Source: Parcubacteria group bacterium (lineage in GTDB: Bacteria > Patescibacteriota > Minisyncoccia > UBA10092). From it: a DNA stretch of 64,000 bases. The translations under genes were made by a program, and so were the position numbers. The number at the start of each line of letters is the position of its first letter. Within the stretch, counting starts at the first letter, position 1. The notes below the pieces were generated by a model. It searched no databases. It was not told the origin of the DNA and saw only the letters and a program-made list of their open reading frames with translations. The stretch lies in NCBI GenBank assembly GCA_016186325.1, contig JACPLW010000010.1:22856-86855 (forward strand), in the 5' to 3' direction. Positions 897 through 56,644 of the stretch are shown here, one piece after another.

Positions 897-2216
897 ATGA
901 ATATAGGTAACTACCAAATAACCAGGGGCCAAATAGTGATTTTCGGTGCGGTTTTTATTATTGTCATCCTTCTTATTTTAGGGTTTATTGTCGGCTCAAA
1001 GCCGCCGGCACAGCAGGTAGTAAATCTGGAATTTTGGGGCCTATACGATGACGGCTATTCCATTTGGCAGCCGTTTTTTGATGCCTATCGCAGAGAAGGT
1101 AGTGCCAATGTTTTTATCAATTACACCAAAATGAATCCCGATACTTACGAACGTGATTTAATTGAGGCCCTGGCTAGCGGCAAGGCGCCCGATATTATAG
1201 CGTTTCATTCTTCCTGGCTTCCCAAGCATGGGAATAAGGTTTCTCCTGTTCCAGAGACTCTAATGACGCTAAGGCAGTTCCAAGAAACGTTTCCCGATGT
1301 TGCCGTTACGAACTTTATTTCTAAAAATCAGATTTATGCCATTCCGGTCTGGACCGACGTTTTAACAATGTTTTACAATAAAGATTTATTTAATACTGCG
1401 GTAATTGGCACGCCGCCCAAAACATGGGATGAGTTTATAAAAGTAATACAAAAACTTTCTGTAAAAGATAAATTCGGCAATTTTACAAAATCCGGAGCGG
1501 CACTCGGTACCGCGGATAATGTAAATAACGCCGCCGATATTTTAAGTTTGCTGATGCTTCAAATCGGCGCCAAGATGGTAAGCGACGATGGGCAAGGAGC
1601 GACTTTTGACCAGAGCGTTACGGTTAACGGTAATTTATTTCTTCCGGGAGAATCGGCGTTAAGATTTTATACCGATTTTGCTAATCCAAAATCCAGCGCC
1701 TACTCTTGGAATGACAAAATGCCGGATTCTTTTGAAGCTTTTATCACCGGGAAAACCGCCATTATTTTTGACTACGCGGTTAATATGCCGGAAATAAAAA
1801 AGAGGGCGCCGAATTTGCGCTTGGGCATAGCAGCAATGCCTCAGCCGGCCAATGCTTCAAGGGATGTTAATTACGCCAGCTACTGGGGCTATGCCGTGCC
1901 GCTGGCCTCAAAAAATTCTCAAGCCGCTTGGCAATTTCTCCTTTATTTGACCAGGAAAGATATAAATCAGTCATTTTCAAACGCAGTTCTGCGGCCGGCT
2001 TCAAGAAGAGATGTAATAAGCGAAGAACAAACATCCGCTGATTTGGGCATTTTTGCCGAAGAAATTCTTTCGGCAGTCAGCTGGTATCAAGTTGACCCAA
2101 TGGCAATTAAAAAAATCTTTAAAGATATGATAGATGCCGTTGTATTGAGCGGCGATAAGCCAGCCGATGCCTTAAGAGACGCGGCGAGCAAGGTAACGTT
2201 TTTGATGAGGAGGTAG
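897..2216 (+). CDS. Extracellular solute-binding protein (ABC transporter, family-1 SBP-like) with an N-terminal membrane anchor
   Basis: 439 aa with an N-terminal TM helix and overall similarity to MalE/UgpB-type binding proteins. The call rests on sequence feel, not a search. Confidence 0.45.
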   Translation: MNIGNYQITRGQIVIFGAVFIIVILLILGFIVGSKPPAQQVVNLEFWGLYDDGYSIWQPFFDAYRREGSANVFINYTKMNPDTYERDLIEALASGKAPDIIAFHSSWLPKHGNKVSPVPETLMTLRQFQETFPDVAVTNFISKNQIYAIPVWTDVLTMFYNKDLFNTAVIGTPPKTWDEFIKVIQKLSVKDKFGNFTKSGAALGTADNVNNAADILSLLMLQIGAKMVSDDGQGATFDQSVTVNGNLFLPGESALRFYTDFANPKSSAYSWNDKMPDSFEAFITGKTAIIFDYAVNMPEIKKRAPNLRLGIAAMPQPANASRDVNYASYWGYAVPLASKNSQAAWQFLLYLTRKDINQSFSNAVLRPASRRDVISEEQTSADLGIFAEEILSAVSWYQVDPMAIKKIFKDMIDAVVLSGDKPADALRDAASKVTFLMRR

Positions 2217-2253
2217 TGCAAATTTCTAATTTCTAATTTCTAAACAAATCCCA

Positions 2254-2748
2254 ATGTCTAAATTGAAAAATCTAAAATTGTTTGCCGTTCTTTTTCTTTT
2301 TGCCATCGCGATAGCTGTGCCGGCGCAGGCGCAGGTTATCGGTAATCTTGATTTTCTCAAGGGTATTGTGCCTTGTGGGACTTCTTATACTGGCAATACT
2401 CCATGTACGGTTTGCCATTTTTACAAACTGCTTCAGAATATCATCAACTTCATGCTTTATGTAACGGCGTCGCTTGTCACGCTGATGGCGGTTTATATCG
2501 CTTTTCTTTTCCTTTTTTCCGGAGGGTCGCCATCAAAAATTACGGATGCTAAAAGCAAGTTATGGCTTCTCGTTTGGGGCACCGTTGTTGTTTTGGGTTC
2601 CTGGCTATTGATAAATACCGTTTTAAACTTTGTGGTTAATCCGCAGGTGTTTCCCATGCCCTGGAATCAAATTAGTTGTGAGATTAGCCAATTACCAAGT
2701 AGAGAAAACTTTGTGTCGCCATTGCCTGTTAATAACTATTACTTGTAA
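2254..2748 (+). CDS. TrbC/VirB2-like type IV secretion pilin, paralog 1
   Basis: Signal peptide ending AQAQ, then a C-terminal hydrophobic segment containing the SGG motif (FLFLFSGGSPSKITDAKSKLW). This is the typical architecture of CPR T4SS-pilin-like proteins. Confidence 0.5.
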   Translation: MSKLKNLKLFAVLFLFAIAIAVPAQAQVIGNLDFLKGIVPCGTSYTGNTPCTVCHFYKLLQNIINFMLYVTASLVTLMAVYIAFLFLFSGGSPSKITDAKSKLWLLVWGTVVVLGSWLLINTVLNFVVNPQVFPMPWNQISCEISQLPSRENFVSPLPVNNYYL

Positions 2749-2786
2749 TTATCCAGATAGTGTGCTATAATGGACCCTATAGACAT

Positions 2787-3125
2787 ATGAAGCGGATTCT
2801 TATTTCATTCTTTTTGTTTTTTTACTTTATGGTTGCTATCGTTACGGTATCGGCTCAAACAATTAGTATTCCCAATCCTCTGGTATCCGGCGACATCCCG
2901 ACTTTAATTGATAAAATCGCCTCCTGGCTTTTGGGAATAGGGACGGTCTTGGCGACTATCGTGATTTTATGGGCGGCCTTTCTCTTTATGACTTCCGGCG
3001 GGAACAAAGACAAGGTGACTCAAGCCAGACAGACATTGTGGTACGCGGTAATCGGCCTTACGGTTTTACTTTTAGCTAAAGGCGCGACACTGTTTATTCA
3101 AAATACTTTAAGCGGTAATTTCTAA
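2787..3125 (+). CDS. TrbC/VirB2-like pilin, paralog 2
   Basis: MKRILISFF...AAFLFMTSGGNKDKVTQARQTLWYAVIGL. Same architecture as the neighbouring genes. Start placed at the internal ATG. Confidence 0.5.
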   Translation: MKRILISFFLFFYFMVAIVTVSAQTISIPNPLVSGDIPTLIDKIASWLLGIGTVLATIVILWAAFLFMTSGGNKDKVTQARQTLWYAVIGLTVLLLAKGATLFIQNTLSGNF

Positions 3126-3202
3126 CCCATTCGACAAGCTCGGGGTTATACTGTAAAATCGAAGTATAAATTAAAAAATTATTAAAATTAAAGTAATATA
3201 TT

Positions 3203-3553
3203 ATGAAAGAAAAATTTTTTAAGGGAGCGATCGTTGGCGTCGGTTTGGGCATGGCTTTATTGCCGTTTCTAGCGTTAGCAGCTACAGTGCTGCCGGGACC
3301 GATTATAACCAACCCCACACAGATTTCTGTATTGATTCAAAAAATTCTTAGTTGGATAGCCGGTATTATAATGGTGATTGCCGTGATTATGCTGCTTTTT
3401 TCGGCAATTTTGTACTTAACGGCCGGTGGCAGCGAAGATAGAGTTGGAAAAGCCAAAAGCTATTTGCTTTACGCTATTGTTGGCATTGTGGTGGCGCTTC
3501 TCACTTTCTCGGTTCAGCCATTTATTACTGCTGTTTTAGAGGGAAGGTTTTAA
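3203..3553 (+). CDS. TrbC/VirB2-like pilin, paralog 3
   Basis: LLFSAILYLTAGGSEDRVGKAKSYLLYAIVGI. Third tandem paralog. Confidence 0.5.
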   Translation: MKEKFFKGAIVGVGLGMALLPFLALAATVLPGPIITNPTQISVLIQKILSWIAGIIMVIAVIMLLFSAILYLTAGGSEDRVGKAKSYLLYAIVGIVVALLTFSVQPFITAVLEGRF

Positions 3554-3572
3554 TCAAGGCAGACAAAAACCA

Positions 3573-3610
3573 ACCCCGCCCCGAGCTTTGTCGAGGGGCG
3601 GGGTTTTGTT
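3573..3610 (+). terminator. Rho-independent terminator after the pilin array
   Basis: aaccccgccccgag...ctcggggcggggtttt: a GC-rich hairpin followed by a T run. Confidence 0.6.
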
Positions 3611-3627
3611 ATCCCCATTTTGTCCCC

Positions 3628-3660
3628 AAAACTATTGATGTCGGACATCAATAGTTTTGG
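3628..3660. repeat. 31-nt perfect palindrome aaaactattgatgtc-g-gacatcaatagtttt
   Basis: Read directly. A related core (tgatgtcggacatcg) also occurs inside tsaD near 9566-9584. Confidence 0.5.
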
Positions 3661-3664
3661 TGGG

Positions 3665-3692
3665 TTTACAAAACAGCAGAAAATGGTATAAT
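3665..3692 (+). promoter_or_regulatory. Sigma70-like promoter for tRNA-Leu (TTTACA, 16-nt spacer, TGgTATAAT)
   Basis: A -35 TTTACA and an extended -10 TGGTATAAT ending about 14 nt before the tRNA 5' end. Confidence 0.5.
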
Positions 3693-3706
3693 TTTACTCT
3701 AAATAT

Positions 3707-3788
3707 GCGCCCGTGGTGAAATGGCAGACACGCTAGCTTTAGGAGCTAGTGCCGAAAGGCGTAGAGGTTCAAATCCTCTCGGGCGCAC
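3707..3788 (+). tRNA. tRNA-Leu (anticodon TAG), class II with a long variable arm
   Basis: Acceptor GCGCCCG pairs with CGGGCGC. The anticodon stem-loop is CTAGC-TTTAGGA-GCTAG, with a 13-nt variable arm and the T-arm AGAGGTTCAAATCCTCT. Confidence 0.8.
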
Positions 3789-8616: not shown

Positions 8617-9788
8617 AGCCTAAGGTTAGCATCTGCGACTATTTTTTTCCATGAATCTTTTTGCGGTTTTTTCTTGAGATAATTAAAATAGCCGGCGGCG
8701 GCAATCATCGCGGCATTGTCGGTGGTGTAAGACAAATCGGGAACAAGCAACGGGATTTTATAGGATGCGATTTTTTTCGCCATTTCTTCGCGCAGTTTTC
8801 TATTGGCGGACACGCCGCCGGCAATCATTACTGATTTTGGATTGAAATTTTTCACCGCTTTAAGCGTTTTAGCGATTAAAACATCAACTATCGCATTCTG
8901 AACTTCAAAAGCCAAAGTCGGTCTGATTTTAGAAATCGGATATTTTTTTATCAAATCATTATACAGATACAAAACTGCGGTTTTAAGTCCTGAAAAAGAA
9001 AAGTTATGATTATCAGAATTTATCATCGGCCGAGGGAGTTTAATTTCGAATTTAGAATTTCGAATTTCGAATTTGTTTGTGATTTGTGATTTGTGATTTG
9101 TGATTTTTGATGCTTCGGTGGCGATAGCGGGACCGCCGGGGTATCCGAGGCCTAGAAGACGCGCCGTTTTATCAAAAGCCTCTCCGGCCGCGTCGTCAAG
9201 TGTTTGGCCTACAATTTTATATTGGCCGTAGTTTCTCATTAAAACCAGCTCAGTGTGCCCGCCGGAAACGATAAGAATTAACGCGGGAAATTCAATTTTT
9301 TTTGAGATTTGTCTCCCTTCGGTAGATCCCCCGTAGGGGGAAGATTTGTCTCCCTTCGGGAGATCCCCCGTAGGGGGAAGATTTGAGATTTTTCCAATTG
9401 GCGGCAGCCAATTGGAATAGATGTGTCCCTCGATATGATTGACGCCTATAATAGGTTTTTGCCACCTATAAGCTGGGGCCCTAGCGAAATTGACTCCGAT
9501 TAAAAGCGACGGCACTAGTCCCGGTCCCCGCGTTACCGCAATCAGGTCAACTTTCTCACTATTGATGTCGGACATCGATAATGCGGCGTTGATTGTGGGG
9601 CCGATTTTTTCAAGATGGGCACGACTAGCGAGATTGGGAACGACTCCCCCGAATTTCTTGTGAATCGCCACCTGGGAATAGGAAACATTTGATAAAACTG
9701 AAAAATAAGGGTTATCAAATCCTCCCTTTGCTTCTATAATCGCCGCGGCAGTGTCGTCGCATGAAGTTTCAATCCCTAGGATATGCAT
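8613..9788 (-). CDS. tsaD: tRNA N6-adenosine threonylcarbamoyltransferase TsaD (Kae1/Gcp family), with low-complexity repeat insertions
   Basis: N-terminal MHILGIETSCDDTAAAI, HIEGH and a C-terminal Gcp-like region. At 391 aa it is longer than typical because of tandem-repeat-encoded inserts. Confidence 0.75.
   Translation of the reverse strand: MHILGIETSCDDTAAAIIEAKGGFDNPYFSVLSNVSYSQVAIHKKFGGVVPNLASRAHLEKIGPTINAALSMSDINSEKVDLIAVTRGPGLVPSLLIGVNFARAPAYRWQKPIIGVNHIEGHIYSNWLPPIGKISNLPPTGDLPKGDKSSPYGGSTEGRQISKKIEFPALILIVSGGHTELVLMRNYGQYKIVGQTLDDAAGEAFDKTARLLGLGYPGGPAIATEASKITNHKSQITNKFEIRNSKFEIKLPRPMINSDNHNFSFSGLKTAVLYLYNDLIKKYPISKIRPTLAFEVQNAIVDVLIAKTLKAVKNFNPKSVMIAGGVSANRKLREEMAKKIASYKIPLLVPDLSYTTDNAAMIAAAGYFNYLKKKPQKDSWKKIVADANLRL
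9044..9112. repeat. Tandem heptanucleotide repeats (aatttcg/gaatttc x about 4, then tgatttg x 4) inside the tsaD coding region
   Basis: Read directly. They encode ...ITNHKSQITNHKSQITNKFEIRNSKFEIK.... Confidence 0.7.
9304..9377. repeat. Family-C element: two tandem 37-bp copies of gatttgtctcccttcgg(g/t)agatcccccgtagggggaa, each a double hairpin, in-frame in tsaD
   Basis: tctcccttcgggaga and tcccccgtaggggga hairpins, encoding ...GDKSSPYGGSTEGRQ.... A third copy lies in mltG at 49512-49548. Confidence 0.7.
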
Positions 9789-26163: not shown

Positions 26164-26627
26164 GGCGAAAAACAAAAATAAAAAGATATATTATTCCCGA
26201 TGAGCGATATAATAACCCGGTTGTTTCCAAACTGGTGAATTATGTTATGCGGAACGGTAAAAAATCGGTTGCTCAAAAAGTTGTCTATACTTCGTTTGAC
26301 ATAATAAAAGAAAAAACAAAAGCCAATCCGATTGAAATTTTTGACAGAGCGATGAGAAACATTACGCCCTCAATTGAGGTAAAATCGCGCCGGGTAGGCG
26401 GCGCCAATTATCAAGTGCCCCAGCCGGTACGCAATGAAAGAAAAGTTCAACTGGCTTTTAGGTGGCTTCTTCTTGCCGCAAAATCAAAAAAGGGAAAACC
26501 TATGGCCGAAAAACTGGCCGAAGAATTAATGCTTGCTTCAAACAACGAAGGATCGGCAATAAGAAAGAAGCTGGATACCCATAGGATGGCTGAAGCAAAC
26601 AGGGCATTCGCGCATTTTTCATGGTAG
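26160..26627 (+). CDS. rpsG: 30S ribosomal protein S7
   Basis: [27 protein letters not shown]... Confidence 0.9.
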
Positions 26628-28756
26628 AAAAAAAAATATTTCCAATAGAAAAAGTCCGCAATATCGGTATTATTGCTCATATTGACGCCGGAAAAACCAC
26701 CGTTTCCGAGCGTATTTTGTTTTACACCGGCATTTCTCACAAAATCGGCGAGGTTCATGAAGGGGCGGCTGTTATGGATTGGATGGAACAGGAAAGAGAA
26801 CGGGGCATTACTATTACGGCAGCGGCCACAACGACTTTTTGGACCCCGACTCTTTTATTGAAAGAACCCACCTCCGCCGAAGCTGCGGCGGGCAAGGAAA
26901 ACGAACACCGCATTAACATTATTGATACTCCCGGGCACATTGATTTTACCGTTGAAGTTCAGCGTTCACTTAGGGTTTTGGATGGCGCCGTTGTAGTGTT
27001 TGACGGCGTTGCCGGCGTTGAACCGCAGTCAGAAACCGTTTGGCGCCAAGCCGATAAATACGGCGTGCCAAGAATTTGCCTTATAAATAAATTGGACCGG
27101 ACGGGCGCGTCTTTTGAAAAAAGTTTGGCATCAATTCACGAGCGTCTGACATTGAATGCCGTTCCGGTAAATTTGCCGAACGGACTTGAAGAAAAATTTG
27201 AGGGCGTCATTGATCTTATTGAAGAGAAGGCCGTTCGTTTTTTGGGCGAACATGGCGAAAAAGTTGAGTATTTTGATATTCCGGAGAGTCTTAAAAAACA
27301 AGCGGTTGAAGCCAGAAAAAGCTTGATAGAAAAAACCGTCGAAACCGACGACGAATTGATGGCAAAATATTTGGAAGGACAGGCGATTTCTAAAGACGAA
27401 ATTAGAAAAGCAATAAGAAAGGCGGTCATTGGGAATAAAATTATTCCGGTTTTTTGCGGCTCGGCCTTAAAAAATAAAGGCATTCAGCTTGTGCTTGACG
27501 GCGTTGTAGAGTATTTGCCCAGTCCAGCAGATCTTCCCCCCACTAAAGGCATTGAACCAAAAACCGGCGCTGAAATTTTACGCGAACCGAAAAATGATGA
27601 ACCGTTTACGGCGCTGGCTTTTAAAATTGCAAGCGATCCTTACGTCGGCTCGCTTACTTATTTTCGCGTTTACTCGGGGAAGCTTTCAAAAGGTTCTTAT
27701 GTTTTAAACTCATCCAAGGATTACAAAGAGCGAGTCAGCCGGATTTTGCTGATGCATGCTAACGATCGGGAGGAAGTTGAGGAAATAAAAGCCGGTGAAA
27801 TCGGCGCCATTGTCGGATTAAAAAACACCACCACAGGCGATACGCTTTGCGACGAAGAACATCCGATTATTTTGGAAAAAATTGTTTTCCCGGAACCGGT
27901 CATTTCCCAAAAGATAGAACCAAAAACTAAAGCCGACCAGGAAAGAATGGGTCTGGCTATGAAACGTTTGTCTGAAGAAGATCCGACTTTCAGGATTAAG
28001 TCAGATTCCGAAACCGGTGAAACCATAATTTCGGGCATGGGTGAACTTCATCTGGAAATTATTGTTGATCGGATGAAAAGAGAATTTAAAGTTGAGGCCA
28101 ACATTGGTCGGCCGCAAGTTGCTTACAAAGAGACAGTCAGAAAAGCGGCCGAAGCTGAAGGTAAATATATTCGGCAATCGGGCGGCCGCGGCCAATACGG
28201 CCATGTTTGGTTGAGAGTTGAGCCTGCCGACCGGGGGAGCGGTTTTGAATTTATTGATGAAATCAAAGGCGGCGTTATTCCGCAGGAATTCATTCCGGCG
28301 GTTGAAAAAGGCATACGCGAAGCCATGGAAAAGGGCGTTAAAGGCGGATTTCCGATGGTTGACATGAAGGCGGCTCTTTATGACGGTTCTTATCACGATG
28401 TTGACTCTTCTGAAGCAGCTTTTAAAATTGCCGCCTCAATTGCTTTTCAGGAAGCCGCAAGACGCGCTACTGTAGTATTTCTTGAGCCGATTATGAAAGT
28501 TGAAGTGGTAACTCCGGAACAGTTTTTTGGCGATGTCACCGGCGACCTAAATTCCAAGCGTGGTAAAATTGAACAAATGTCGGAAAGAGCAATGCTAAAA
28601 GTAATTGATGCCAAGGTGCCGCTTTCTGAAATGTTCGGCTACGCCACCAAGCTTCGCTCAATGAGCCAAGGTCGCGCGAGTTATACTATGGAGTTTGATC
28701 ACTATGAAGAAGTTCCAAATAATGTCGCGGAATTGATTGTTGCGGGTAAAAAGTAG
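26621..28756 (+). CDS. fusA: Elongation factor G
   Basis: [14 protein letters not shown]-domain, DTPGHIDF and overall EF-G layout. 711 aa. Confidence 0.9.
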
Positions 28757-28768
28757 TTAATAACAAAC

Positions 28769-29005
28769 ATGTACGAAACAATAAAAAAATTTTTAGAAGA
28801 AGGAGGGAAATGTCTTTTGATTGAAGACGGAAAGCCGATTGGCGTTGTTTTGACGATGGAAGAATACGAAAAACTTCAACCTTCGCCGAAAAAAGATGAG
28901 GTTGCGGCCTCGACCGAAACGGCGGTGAATATGGATGAACTTGATTTTGCGTCGCCCGATGATATTACGCTTGAAGATTTAGGGTTAGATGAAATATCGG
29001 AATAA
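28769..29005 (+). CDS. Phd/YefM-like antitoxin-domain protein with an acidic tail
   Basis: GKPIGVVLTMEEYEKL resembles the Phd/YefM N-terminal motif. Confidence 0.4.
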   Translation: MYETIKKFLEEGGKCLLIEDGKPIGVVLTMEEYEKLQPSPKKDEVAASTETAVNMDELDFASPDDITLEDLGLDEISE

Positions 29006-29066
29006 AGATTAAGTCGGGCTATTTTTTACTTTTGCAAAAATTTTTTGCTTTTGGTATATTTACAAC

Positions 29067-29270
29067 GTGTCCACTAAAACATTAGAAAGAGTAAAAGCGG
29101 AAATCAAAAGAGAGCTCATGCAAGAGTTTGTTTTACCAATTCTACGAGAGGTTAAAGATGCCGAAGGGGAATACAAAGAAGCCTTTATAAGGCAAGTGTT
29201 GAAGATGGCGAAAGAAAAGCCCAGTTATGTCTACGACCCTAAGACTTTTTTAGGCCAAATTAAGAAATAA
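29067..29270 (+). CDS. Hypothetical small protein (putative antitoxin of the downstream relE-like gene)
   Basis: 67-aa ORF with a GTG start, ending 9 bp before the toxin start. Assignment by position only. Confidence 0.3.
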   Translation: MSTKTLERVKAEIKRELMQEFVLPILREVKDAEGEYKEAFIRQVLKMAKEKPSYVYDPKTFLGQIKK

Positions 29271-29278
29271 TAATTTAG

Positions 29279-29543
29279 ATGCATCGGCTTATTTTCGGCA
29301 AGGCATTTCTTGATTCTTCCAAAAAGTTAGATGAAATCATTAAGCCCAAGCTAAAATCTAGTTTGGATTTTTTTATCACTAAACCCATTTCACTCATCTT
29401 TACACACTAAGCCGCTTACCGGAAAACTTTCCGGTTTTTATTCTTTCAGATTAAGCAGAGATTATAGGGTTATTTTTAAAATTATTTCTTCTGAAGAAAT
29501 TTACTTAATAAGAGTTGGCCATCGTAGGGATATTTATAGATAG
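29279..29543 (+). pseudogene. RelE/ParE-family toxin gene disrupted by a +1 frameshift in a T7 homopolymer (29358-29364)
   Basis: N-terminal frame MHRLIFGKAFLDSSKKLDEIIKPKLKSSLDF. After the T7 run the other frame reads LSLNPFHSSLHTKPLTGKLSGFYSFRLSRDYRVIFKIISSEEIYLIRVGHRRDIYR*. Removing one T restores an intact 87-aa RelE-like protein. Confidence 0.55.
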
Positions 29544-29681
29544 AATTTTATTTTTGTAAAATATAGTTTATAACTATGTGTGAACATTACCGCGGTCTAT
29601 TGACTAATTTTGGTTTTTAGTGCTATAATTTAGCAGGCTTAAAAACCATAAAATCACAAAGATCAAAGGAGGAGCGAAAAT

Positions 29682-30242
29682 ATGGGAAGAATCCCTGTAG
29701 AGCTCAAAGATCAACGTGATAAACTTATAACTAAAGTTTTAGCAGAAAGAAATGGTCATAATCTTTCGGAAATAGCCAGAAAGCTTTCTGGCCACCCTCT
29801 TTTTTCTGGATCAAAAAACTATAAGGTTATTTACCAATATATTCTGCGTTTAGCATATCAGAACGAGGCTACTGGCGAGGGCCAAAGGTCGTCGCTAAAG
29901 TCAACTCCCAACACGCCTAGCCAATCGCGTTTTGAACAAGTGGTCAACCGTGTTTCTTTACATCTTCCGGTTGGAACTGCAGATCAAATTGCACGACTTC
30001 TTAGAGTGCTTCGCGCTGAATTTTCCTTGTTGGAGCAAGAAGCACTTAAAGCAAAACAACTTGAATTGGAAGTGTGTAATCTTAAGAGTCATCGCTGTAT
30101 GGATGTTGACACGACGCTCCGTGAAGAAAATGAGCGTCTCAAAGAAAGAATTGCATTTCTTGAACGTCGGGTAGAGGCGCTCTCGCGTCTGACAACCCCG
30201 AAGATCGATAATGATAAACACCTAGCAATTGCGGGTAGGTAA
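29682..30242 (+). CDS. Hypothetical protein with a C-terminal coiled coil
   Basis: 186-aa ORF with aggag SD. Heptad-like LEQEALKAKQLELEV...LKERIAFLERRVEAL. No family recognised. Confidence 0.4.
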   Translation: MGRIPVELKDQRDKLITKVLAERNGHNLSEIARKLSGHPLFSGSKNYKVIYQYILRLAYQNEATGEGQRSSLKSTPNTPSQSRFEQVVNRVSLHLPVGTADQIARLLRVLRAEFSLLEQEALKAKQLELEVCNLKSHRCMDVDTTLREENERLKERIAFLERRVEALSRLTTPKIDNDKHLAIAGR

Positions 30243-30360
30243 TAATAGATCCGCAAATTAATCCAGGAGAGCCGCATAATTGCGGCTCTTTAATATACTT
30301 ATAACAATAGAGTTATCTTGATAACACGGAAAAATACAGAGCTTTTTATAAAATAAACAG

Positions 30361-30389
30361 TTGACAGATTTGGCTGTATTGACTAAAAT
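30361..30389 (+). promoter_or_regulatory. Sigma70-like promoter for tuf (TTGACA, 17-nt spacer, TAAAAT)
   Basis: Read directly. A leader of about 135 nt contains the hairpin tcctcc-ttcgcataaagctac-ggagga, which pairs the SD with an upstream anti-SD. Confidence 0.5.
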
Positions 30390-30527
30390 GGGATTTGCGT
30401 GTTAAAAATATAAAGCTAATGTATGGCGACCCCAGTTCTAATTTTACTGGAATAGCTTAAAAAATTTTATTATTAGTAATCTAAATTTATCCTCCTTCGC
30501 ATAAAGCTACGGAGGACAAGTAAAAAT

Positions 30528-31721
30528 ATGGCAGAAAAATTTGAACGAACAAAGCCCCATCTTAATGTCGGAACCATCGGCCACGTTGACCATGGCAAAA
30601 CCACTTTAACGGCGGCTATTACCAAGATTCTTCATATGAAGGGCTTGGCGAAAAAAGCGGAGTCGGTTGACGATATTGATAAAGCGCCCGAGGAAAAAGC
30701 GCGCGGCATTACGATTCAGTTGCATCACTCCGAGTATGAATCAGAAAAGCGCCACTATGCGCACATCGACGCTCCAGGCCATGCCGATTACATCAAAAAC
30801 ATGATTACCGGCGCGGCGCAGATGGATGGCGCCATTCTCGTTGTTGCCGCGACCGACGGTCCGATGCCCCAAACAAGAGAACATATTCTTTTGGCGCGCC
30901 AGGTTGGCGTTCCGTCTTTGGTGGTTTTCTTGAACAAGGTTGATATGGTTTCCGATCCGGAACTGGTAGATTTGGTTGAAGCTGAAATTCGCGAACTTTT
31001 AACTAAATACGGATTTCCCGGCGATAAAGTGCCGGTAATCCGCGGTTCGGCTCTTAAGGCGCTTGAAGCTAAATCTCCTGATGACGAAGCGGCTAAACCA
31101 ATTCTTGAGTTAGTTCAAGCGCTTGATGATTTTATTCCCGAGCCGGTTCGCGAAATCGAAAAACCGTTTCTTATGCCGATTGAAGACATCTTTTCAATTG
31201 AAGGCCGCGGTACGGTTGTGACCGGCCGGATTGAAAGGGGCATGGTTAAACTTAACGATGAAGTTGATATAATCGGCTTAAGACCGAATCAAAAAACAAT
31301 CATTACCGGTATTGAAATGTTTAATAAGTCGCTTGACGAAGGCCGCGCGGGCGATAATGCCGGCATTCTTATCCGTGGTCTTAAGAAAGAAGACGTTGAA
31401 CGCGGCCAGGTTTTAGCCAAACCAGGTTCGGTAACACCGCACACAGAGTTTGACGCGGAAGTTTATATTCTTACTAAAGAAGAGGGCGGCCGGCATACTC
31501 CATTTTTTACGAACTACAAGCCGCAGTTTTATATCAGAACTACCGATGTTACCGGCGAAGTTGTTTTGGCTCCCGGAGTAGAGATGGTTATGCCCGGCGA
31601 TACCGTAAAATTCTCCGTTAAATTAATTGCTCCCGTGGCTCTGGAAGAACAGCAACGATTCGCTATTAGAGAGGGCGGTAAAACAGTCGGCGCCGGTGTT
31701 GTGACGAAAGTCAATAAATAA
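30528..31721 (+). CDS. tuf: Elongation factor Tu
   Basis: [18 protein letters not shown] and NKVD motifs. 397 aa. Confidence 0.95.
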
Positions 31722-32780: not shown

Positions 32781-32897
32781 CCCGCTCTGAAAATAAATAT
32801 TAGTTCTCTAAACAAAAATTAAAAATGAACAGCCCCCGCGTTGCGCGGGGGCCGACTCCGCACGATTGCGGGGTCTTAAGAAAGAACGGTTGGTTGT

Positions 32898-33569
32898 CTA
32901 GTAGCTGGGAGGTGTGGCGATCCACCGATCGAAACAGACGGTGCCGGTGGATCGCTGTTCGCACACCTGGGCTACGTAGCCCATACTTGGTGTCGAGCGG
33001 TGGTAGCCGCCGTAACTGTAGCCGCCACCGTTTCCGCTCAACGAGATGTTGAAGTTGAGCTGGGAGAGACTGATGGCTCGCTTGGGAGCCGGCGCCGGCG
33101 CGAAGGGTGCCTGGATCTCTTCCGGCCTGGGGGCCGGCGGAGAAAACATCGGCGGCAGGGTTGCCGCCGGCGCCGCAGGCCGCGGCGCGCAGAAGTAGTC
33201 GTCGGCCTTTGAGCACATCGTTGCCGGCGGCTGAACCGGCGTCGGGACGACCGCGGAAGGAGCCGGCGCACAGCAGCAGCACGTCGCTGCCGTGGTAGGC
33301 GCAGGTGCCGTGGGGACGACTGCCGGCGCCGGCGCAGCTGGCGCAGGCGCTGTCGGCGACACCTTCTTCGGAGCGGCGGCGGGCACCTTCTTCGCGGCCG
33401 GCTTGGCCGCGGGCTGAACCGCCTTCGAAGGCGGCGGCAGAACCACTCGCACGGCCTCGTGCCGCACGATGGCCGGGCCGTAGCCCGACAAGTTGAGCGC
33501 GATTAGAAGGCCGAGCGCGCCGAGCGCCATGAACAGAAAGTTCAGAACCCATCGCTTTGTCATCGTCAT
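32898..33569 (-). CDS. GC-rich foreign gene: Pro/Ala-rich secreted or membrane-anchored protein, inserted antisense between rplC and rplD
   Basis: N-terminal TM/signal MTMTKRWVLNFLFMALGALGLLIALN, then PAAKPAAKKVPAAAPKKVSPTAPAPAAP repeats. Its base composition is strikingly GC-rich against the AT-rich flanks. Own SD ggaggg and a minus-strand terminator at 32825-32865. The likely start is the second ATG at about 33563. Confidence 0.5.
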   Translation of the reverse strand: MTMTKRWVLNFLFMALGALGLLIALNLSGYGPAIVRHEAVRVVLPPPSKAVQPAAKPAAKKVPAAAPKKVSPTAPAPAAPAPAVVPTAPAPTTAATCCCCAPAPSAVVPTPVQPPATMCSKADDYFCAPRPAAPAATLPPMFSPPAPRPEEIQAPFAPAPAPKRAISLSQLNFNISLSGNGGGYSYGGYHRSTPSMGYVAQVCEQRSTGTVCFDRWIATPPSY

Positions 33570-33712
33570 CCCTCCTTAGGGATTTCGGATGTTACGGTTT
33601 AGAACGTTTTTTATTGACCACTTCGACTCAGCTCAGGGTCAATCCTGAGCTTGTTGAACGGATTGACAAACAACTTACTTTTGTACTAACATTGTATCAT
33701 ATTTTTTAAGTT

Positions 33713-56507: not shown

Positions 56508-56575
56508 TGCGGGCCGGACGGGATTTGAACCCGCGATCTCTGTCGTGACAGGGCAGCGCTTTGAACCGCATAACC
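56508..56575 (-). other. Truncated tRNA 3' fragment (T-arm plus acceptor 3' strand only), related to but distinct from tRNA-Asp
   Basis: GAGATCGCGGGTTCAAATCCCGTCCGGCCCGCA against tRNA-Asp GAGATCGCCGGTTCGAATCCGGTCGCCCGCGCA. The stem positions differ by compensatory changes. No 5' half is present. Confidence 0.5.
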
Positions 56576-56644
56576 AGAAATGAAATGGAATTCGGAGTCG
56601 GCGCTTATCAGAGAGCGTTAAAAGAACTGGAGTTTATTGATTGA
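56573..56644 (+). repeat. 72-bp direct repeat of the 3' end of the 55296-55829 gene (about 94% identical)
   Basis: accagaaatgaaatggaattcggagtcggcgcttatcagagagcgttaaaagaactggagtttattgattga, against the same segment at 55758-55829. Confidence 0.7.

Follow-up and report, generated by a model that had tools for sequence, protein, structure and literature searches.

A small gene after fusA and a variable slot before tuf in the str operon of a patescibacterium

The canonical str operon has the gene order rpsL-rpsG-fusA-tufA. The same order, with the S10 operon after tuf, is found in the DNA studied here, a 64,000-nucleotide stretch of contig JACPLW010000010.1 (hereafter, the window) from a tiny groundwater bacterium with a genomic G + C content of ∼40%, a Paceibacteria/Azambacteria-like member of the Patescibacteria. 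This paper deals with the interval between fusA and tuf in the window, which carries a small gene, p78, and behind it a slot that holds a toxin–antitoxin cassette of the relBE type, with the toxin gene broken, and a further gene, p186. Besides the str operon, the closest described systems are the relBE-type modules (TIGR02385/PF05016), the Phd/YefM antitoxins (PF02604) and, as a concept of comparative genomics, integration hotspots between conserved core genes. The ultra-small genomes of Patescibacteria are often called poor in defence and toxin–antitoxin systems. A study of horizontal transfer in Patescibacteria (PMC12455944) places tuf and ribosomal protein genes among the horizontally acquired or genomic-island genes; neither the fusA–tuf slot nor p78 is described in that paper.

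In the window, 1,771 nucleotides (nt) separate rpsL-rpsG-fusA from tuf, behind which come rpsJ and the S10 operon; the whole array is on the plus strand. An earlier note on this DNA had taken fusA and tuf to be normally adjacent, an assumption that fails for Patescibacteria. Gap lengths were compiled from 36 patescibacterial genome loci with a measured gap and 18 loci of other phyla. The latter have gaps of 29–161 nt (<200 nt in 18/18), whereas only 4 of the 36 patescibacterial loci fall below 200 nt and the fusA–tuf distance across the group ranges from 114 to >5,800 nt; a conserved, separate tuf promoter is a further departure from the canonical operon. Among species-representative genomes, the nearest EF-G (75% amino acid (aa) identity) belongs to a Parcubacteria/Paceibacteria metagenome-assembled genome, while the nearest relatives found are L086 (93%), L103 (90%) and L100/L101 (84%); EF-Tu of L086 is 97% identical to that of the window. 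Rfam searches (gathering threshold for the whole window, E-value threshold for 28700–30600) placed no RNA family and no tRNA between fusA and tuf, the matches being tRNAs outside the interval and one chance-level small RNA match. In the patescibacterial loci L008, L035, L037, L050, L052 and L057, the 5.4–6 kb behind fusA showed no tuf, and some lineages may therefore have fusA and tuf unlinked. EF-G matches of 3 kb in some loci, considered as insertions, probably reflect cross-matching of the common GTPase domain instead: EF-G stops ∼1 kb before the match ends and the surplus overlaps the start of tuf.

The interval and its core flanks are arranged as follows (window positions; ORF, open reading frame; SD, Shine–Dalgarno sequence).

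26621–28756, plus strand: fusA (EF-G, 711 aa), the left core flank (ORF list)
28769–29005, plus strand: p78, a conserved small str-operon protein (ORF list, family alignments, synteny)
29006–30359, no strand: variable slot, an accessory segment of ∼1.35 kb (homology breaks relative to L086, L100, L101 and L103)
30361–30389, plus strand: tuf promoter TTGACA-17-TAAAAT, at the right border of the slot (promoter scan, 11/12)
30390–30527, plus strand: tuf leader, ∼138 nt, with two hairpin modules (leader comparison)
30490–30516, plus strand: leader hairpin UCCUCC/GGAGGA, its 3' arm GGAGGA at 30511–30516, 11 nt before the tuf ATG
30528–31721, plus strand: tuf (EF-Tu, 397 aa), the right core flank (ORF list)

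The gene p78 starts 12 nt after fusA. Its product has a Phd/YefM-like N-terminal domain (approximately residues 1–38), which an acidic, disordered linker joins to a motif conserved at the C-terminus, DDITLEDLGLDE. All 73 homologues are annotated as 'hypothetical' and carry no Pfam domain. In family alignments the two terminal parts are strongly conserved and the linker varies in length: the N-terminus is nearly invariant (MYETIKKFLxEGGKCLLIExGKPIGVVLTMEEYEKL) and the conserved C-terminus reads DVTLEDLGLDELPY, with ..LEDLPF or ..LEDIPF in distant members. When a hidden Markov model (HMM) of the family was searched against every ORF in 80 fusA loci, it gave 10 matches, each of them directly downstream of fusA; p78 thus follows fusA in 10 of the 36 patescibacterial genome loci with a measured gap. 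Another 30 metagenome loci were recovered via the p78 family, and in all 28 that include upstream DNA the end of fusA lies 2–174 nt upstream of the p78 homologue. Being conserved and syntenic after fusA, p78 is ancestral in the clade, neither accessory nor a remnant of a toxin–antitoxin system.

The earlier note had described p78 as a Phd/YefM-like toxin–antitoxin remnant, and of this description the likeness stands, in a weak form, while the remnant status does not. The match of p78 to PF02604 (E = 0.08; 13.2 bits) falls short of the gathering cut-off of 29.8 bits, and the sub-threshold matches found in 19 of 30 family members (best E = 1.1e-4) include none shown to reach it. The AlphaFold2 model is well defined for residues 1–40 (predicted local distance difference test score, pLDDT, 82–92) and has a helix-strand-strand-helix arrangement, for which the best Foldseek match is the Phd-like structure 2odk (root-mean-square deviation 1.3 Å over 36 columns, probability 0.97), with an E-value of 0.48 because the match is so short. 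With hhalign the p78 profile aligned to Escherichia coli YefM (E = 0.024) and gave no alignment to P1 Phd. Like the Phd/YefM antitoxins, p78 carries the GKP..VV...EYE.L signature and is disordered in its C-terminal half, and its predicted core may have their fold, but it seems to lack the first beta-strand and has a fixed position in the str operon. The conserved motif at its end (..TLEDLGLDELPY, replaced by ..LEDLPF in distant members) has no likeness to the way Phd or YefM end. Nor is there a toxin gene beside it: its neighbour in every relative is tuf or variable cargo, no adjoining Doc or YoeB toxin was found in the window or in ∼40 related loci, and a motif scan found no Fic/Doc motif across the 64-kb window. 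Given this weak likeness, the missing toxin and the synteny, we read p78 as a conserved member of the operon with an antitoxin-type fold. The str operon of this organism is then rpsL-rpsG-fusA-p78, followed by the separate, conserved tuf promoter, with p78, at its distance of 12 nt, probably co-transcribed with fusA. The p78 product would be a small, lineage-conserved protein in which a disordered linker connects an antitoxin-type fold to a C-terminal peptide that is also conserved.

More tentatively, and with less than even confidence, we propose that p78 is an undescribed str-operon member of a large Paceibacteria clade, a domesticated, toxin-free protein of antitoxin fold whose C-terminal peptide docks onto a cellular partner and which acts in translation or in the control of the tuf promoter, and that the p78–tuf spacer is a dedicated 'safe harbour' in which toxin–antitoxin and other small cassettes are captured again and again. 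The docking peptide would be acidic, ..LEDLPF-COOH in distant members and ..TLEDLGLDELPY in this clade; the ..EDLPF terminus may resemble the C-terminal tip of SSB, DDD[IL]PF. In two distant Patescibacteria (L041, 6810–7439; L053, 9770–10171), another small acidic protein with a Phd-like N-terminus is encoded immediately upstream of tuf. The L041 protein matches PF02604 with E = 4e-5, the C-termini are ..FYLEPIE and ..FYFEPLE in L041 and L053, respectively, and these proteins may form a second family of the p78 kind.

The DNA behind p78 is of a different character. Homology to L086, L100, L101 and L103 runs through p78 and stops at 29005–29012; it sets in again at 30359/30360, which is one or two bases ahead of the tuf −35 box. 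In L086 only 19 nt lie between the stop codon of the p78 homologue and the tuf −35 box; L100 and L101 have a minus-strand gene of 162 aa at this place, and L103 has the same gene together with small ORFs. The cargo of the window is shared by none of these four relatives. Over the metagenome loci the distance from p78 to tuf ranges from 74 nt to >4,500 nt, and the cargo includes HicB-like/HicA pairs in three loci (HicA PF07927, 61 bits), an AbiEii toxin, a RelE-like pair and a UDG-like gene. In L045, which belongs to another lineage (Nomurabacteria), the fusA–tuf gap holds three toxin–antitoxin-like modules (RelB-YafQ, DUF2283 and ParE). The comparison thus bears out the earlier note's claim of accessory DNA between fusA and tuf, and an insertion common to the relatives, which the note had named as the sign of an ancestral one, was not found for the slot. 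The length of ∼1.8 kb given there for the insertion holds only in part, since accessory DNA is confined to 29006–30359 and the p78 portion is conserved and syntenic.

The segment 29006–30359 is, by these comparisons, a fast-changing slot with a conserved site and variable cargo. The short spacer from the p78 stop codon to the tuf −35 box probably serves as a recurrent landing site for small self-contained cassettes, and in this genome it would have received at least two units, the toxin–antitoxin cassette and p186. Like integration hotspots, the slot is bordered by core genes, has differing cargo in close relatives and is rich in toxin–antitoxin and defence-type genes; it differs from them in being very small (0–4.5 kb), in lying inside the most highly expressed translation operon and in having no detected integrase or repeats.

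The right border of the slot coincides with the tuf promoter, whose region is 84–95% identical in L086, L100, L101 and L103. A block TTGACA..TATTGACTAAAAT..ATTTGCGTGTTAAA that includes this promoter was found again in many members of the clade, and the promoter is conserved across it. With 11 of 12 consensus positions and this conservation in relatives, the claim that tuf has a strong promoter of its own holds. The leaders of tuf are modular, with short forms that lack hairpins, as in L086 and others, and long forms that have a hairpin after AAGCTAAyGTATGGC. The segment 30359–30456 is 95% identical to L103, exceeding the identity of the flanking coding DNA. The first leader module (window 30416–30462; L103 6838–6885; also L118) contains a 10-codon mini-ORF, ATGGCGACCCCAGTTCTAATTTTACTGGAATAG (MATPVLILLE), which is identical in the window and L103 and overlaps a small hairpin, CCAGT/ACTGG.

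The second module contains the hairpin that the earlier note had called SD-sequestering. The hairpin itself is real, and reading it as a switch that controls tuf translation by hiding the SD has some attraction: UCCUCC can pair with GGAGGA 11 nt before the ATG, the hairpin alone (−10.8 kcal/mol, z = −3.1) is more stable than shuffled sequence, and homologues occur in the leaders of L119, L124, L127, L128 and L133 with a near-identical loop and one compensatory change of G-C to U-A in the stem. However, the hairpins of L124 and L133 lie 59–63 nt upstream of the ATG and have the arm GGCGG, which is no SD; the tuf genes of these two loci and of L086 have no SD at all, and a GGAGGA 3' arm at SD distance is found only in the window. 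Taken as a whole, the leader shows no unusual stability (z = −1.2). The conserved loop sequence points less to an SD switch than to an element that binds a protein or stabilises the mRNA. Sequestration may occur in the window but does not appear to be the conserved role of the hairpin, and we consider a translational switch unlikely. As for a multi-copy mobile element, the hairpin is present in the window as a single copy.

The left part of the slot is occupied by the toxin–antitoxin cassette.

29032–29060, plus strand: weak promoter-like site of the cassette, TTGCAA-17-TATATT (promoter scan, 9/12)
29067–29270, plus strand: p67, an intact, DUF2683-like antitoxin gene with a GTG start (homologues upstream of intact toxins)
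29279–29543, plus strand: pseudogene of a RelE/StbE-family toxin, 265 nt (87 codons, stop codon and one extra T) (profile matches of the repaired protein)
29368–29374, plus strand: T7 run, site of a one-base insertion (T7 in the window and five Logan assemblies, T6 in L096–L099)

The homology of the cassette to L098 and L099 spans 29032–29549 and begins at the promoter-like site, whose −10 box is only 6 nt away from the start codon of p67, a GTG. With so short a distance the mRNA of the cassette may be leaderless; the start codon of p67 is GTG in the window and ATG in its homologues (29055–29069). Close homologues of p67 (68 aa) are encoded 7 nt upstream of intact toxins in L096–L099, in unrelated contexts, which makes p67 the probable cognate antitoxin, itself intact. 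An exhaustive search gave 31 cluster representatives of this family, 15 of the 25 aligned members weakly matching PF10884 (DUF2683; best E = 2e-6); p67 itself has no Pfam or NCBIfam match. With one T removed, the toxin gene encodes 87 aa. The repaired protein scores above the curated cut-offs of both PF05016 (33.4 vs 23 bits) and TIGR02385 RelE_StbE (35.3 vs 27.9 bits), matches phrog_1213, RelE-like toxin, in PHROGs (E = 2e-15) and aligns end to end and without gaps with intact 87-aa homologues (49–83% identity). It keeps every invariant and near-invariant column of a 15-sequence alignment, among them the invariant K44, R57, R63, R82 and Y86; the conserved basic and Tyr residues are taken to belong to the active site from what is known of RelE. 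Both the RelE/ParE toxin and the putative antitoxin of the earlier note are thereby supported. The cassette resembles relBE-type modules in its two genes with the antitoxin first, the 8-nt spacer, a repaired toxin above the curated cut-offs with conserved Arg and Tyr near the C-terminus, and homologous cassettes in unrelated contexts, as would be expected of mobile toxin–antitoxin modules. It differs in its broken toxin frame and in p67, which is neither RelB nor Phd nor ParD but a member of a small, weakly DUF2683-like family. The unit received by the slot would thus be a relBE-type type II cassette that pairs a DUF2683-like antitoxin with an mRNA-interferase toxin of the RelE/StbE family.

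The frameshift is due to a single extra T, which splits the toxin gene into pieces of 43 and 58 aa. In place of the GATTTTTTTA of the window, the intact homologues in L096–L099 (two distinct DNA sequences) have GATTTTTTA, with T6. The remaining homologues listed, save the window's own annotated 58-aa fragment, are all intact at 87–90 aa. Contigs of SRR12113420, 22, 24, 30 and 33, assembled separately, are 100% identical to the window over 1.0–2.4 kb, T7 included, which brings the assemblies with T7 to six and argues against a one-off assembly error; the break appears to be real and fixed in the population. The frameshift in a T7 run reported in the earlier note, which had proposed that reads be checked at this tract, is therefore confirmed, with T7 in the assemblies of all five read sets. 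Without an uninterrupted reading frame the gene is filed as a putative pseudogene of the RelE/StbE family. We suggest that the toxin was inactivated after its arrival by replication slippage, the coding T6 becoming T7, and that this happened recently, since the antitoxin is intact and further damage is absent.

Homopolymer runs are known to undergo reversible slippage, and the toxin might still be made, at low dose or in a phase-variable manner, by slippage of RNA polymerase or +1 ribosomal frameshifting on the T7 run. The otherwise undamaged gene, with its invariant and near-invariant residues kept, and the intact antitoxin are what one would expect in that case. The frameshifted arrangement, however, is not conserved: both homologues whose DNA was read are in frame with T6, and the others listed have their 87–90 aa, which argues against a conserved programmed frameshift. 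Moreover, a hairpin ahead of the T run is not conserved in L098, and a run of seven T's is rather short for transcriptional slippage to be efficient. We consider continued production of the toxin quite improbable, and inactivation by slippage remains our preferred explanation of the break. Terminator-like hairpins inside the toxin gene (29346–29366 and 29418–29435) are not conserved in homologues and were taken as chance.

The right part of the slot holds p186 with its own signals.

29600–29629, plus strand: p186 promoter TTGACT-18-TATAAT with a TG extension (promoter scan, 11/12)
29682–30242, plus strand: p186, a rare helical protein with a strong SD, AGGAGGAG (ORF list, AlphaFold2)
30266–30299, plus strand: hairpin resembling an intrinsic terminator after p186, GAGCCGCA-TAAT-TGCGGCTC, followed by TTTAATAT (fold energy)

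The terminator hairpin (−19.1 kcal/mol, z = −6.4) was not equalled in stability by any of 200 shuffles. The p186 family comprises only five protein clusters, and no Pfam, NCBIfam, PADLOC or PDB sequence match was found for p186, which has a weak coiled-coil match in PHROGs. Its AlphaFold2 model, of low confidence (pLDDT 64), is all-helical, with three short N-terminal helices followed by a long C-terminal helical hairpin, in line with the coiled-coil hypothetical protein of the earlier note; a fold search gave generic, uninformative helical-bundle matches. Homologues of 60% identity are found at another, conserved locus in L088 and L092, between genes for Aminotran_3 and UPF0102/CDP-alcohol phosphatidyltransferase, and the homology is restricted to the ORF. 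The p186 promoter is 74% identical to the tuf promoter region over 31 nt and has in common with it the 10-mer TATTGACTAA, of which there are only two occurrences in 64 kb; this hints that the p186 promoter is a partial duplicate of the tuf promoter. The p186 unit would thus have a strong SD, a terminator and a consensus promoter, for which part of the tuf promoter may have been copied. The L092 locus with the p186 homologue (1549–3771) also includes a gene for a XerC/D-type tyrosine recombinase beside rpsO, which according to precomputed Pfam matches is split by an intein that includes a LAGLIDADG endonuclease domain.

Taken as a whole, the explanation that we hold with good confidence combines a conserved p78, a recurrent slot, a relBE-type cassette with a recently broken toxin and the p186 unit. 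Several observations weigh against it or parts of it. The likeness of p78 to Phd/YefM lies below every curated threshold (PF02604, hhalign). No integrase or transposase gene was found within 29006–30359 in the ORF list or by profile searches, and no convincing target-site duplications, terminal repeats or border repeats flank the slot. The five Logan run numbers are consecutive and probably represent one population, so that what they give is a fixed consensus, beneath which a minority of T6 may persist. Finally, the cargo could be ancestral and have been lost in the relatives, which we judge unlikely. Blastn of the slot against plasmids and phages gave no match, a scan of viral contigs found nothing for the p186 and p78 families, and PADLOC returned no matches; the slot thus shows none of the marks of a mobile element or genomic island that were sought, namely an integrase, repeats and similarity to phages or plasmids.

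The whole 1.8 kb, p78 included, might instead be a single accessory island of decayed toxin–antitoxin genes, as the weak Phd/YefM likeness of the p78 N-terminus and a dip in G + C content to ∼31% over the toxin gene and the spacer upstream of p186 (29250–29700) could suggest. Against this stand the p78 homologues that follow fusA in 10 genome loci and 28/28 metagenome loci with upstream DNA, the presence of p78 even in relatives whose gap is otherwise empty, the strong conservation of both its termini around a variable linker, and DNA homology to relatives that breaks only at the p78 stop codon; a single island is very improbable and already largely refuted. Weakest of all is the idea that T7 arose as an error of sequencing or assembly and that the toxin is intact: homopolymers are a classic source of error and the repaired ORF is perfect, but each of the five separately assembled read sets matches the window exactly over 1–2.4 kb, T7 included.

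With p78 kept apart from the cargo, there is mild novelty in its family and in the recurrent slot, and these are the parts that deserve further attention; the toxin–antitoxin part is ordinary, a routine cassette following the usual route of decay, in which the toxin is lost first and at its most mutable homopolymer. In the core translation operon of Patescibacteria a tiny spacer with rapid turnover has repeatedly been host to toxin–antitoxin modules. Between EF-G and EF-Tu, many patescibacterial genomes encode a conserved and so far nameless small protein with a predicted antitoxin fold, a well-defined candidate for studying lineage-specific translation or operon biology, and also a warning to annotators that such genes should not be called antitoxins.

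Two further features of the window lie outside the fusA–tuf interval. Between rplC and rplD, a stretch of ∼750 nt (32800–33600) has a G + C content of 62–75% in a genome of ∼40%; it includes a minus-strand ORF (32898–33569) for a Pro/Ala-rich protein of 223 aa with a membrane-anchor-like N-terminus and no Pfam match. Equivalents are present at the same site in L086 (62–74% G + C, 8700–9400) and L100 (minus-strand genes of 193 and 70 aa), and blastn could not align them with the insert of the window. On the minus strand at 56518–56576, a truncated tRNA-like match, which scores 29.1 bits, the same as the Rfam gathering score, and is not called by ARAGORN, lies close to a cluster of tRNA genes.

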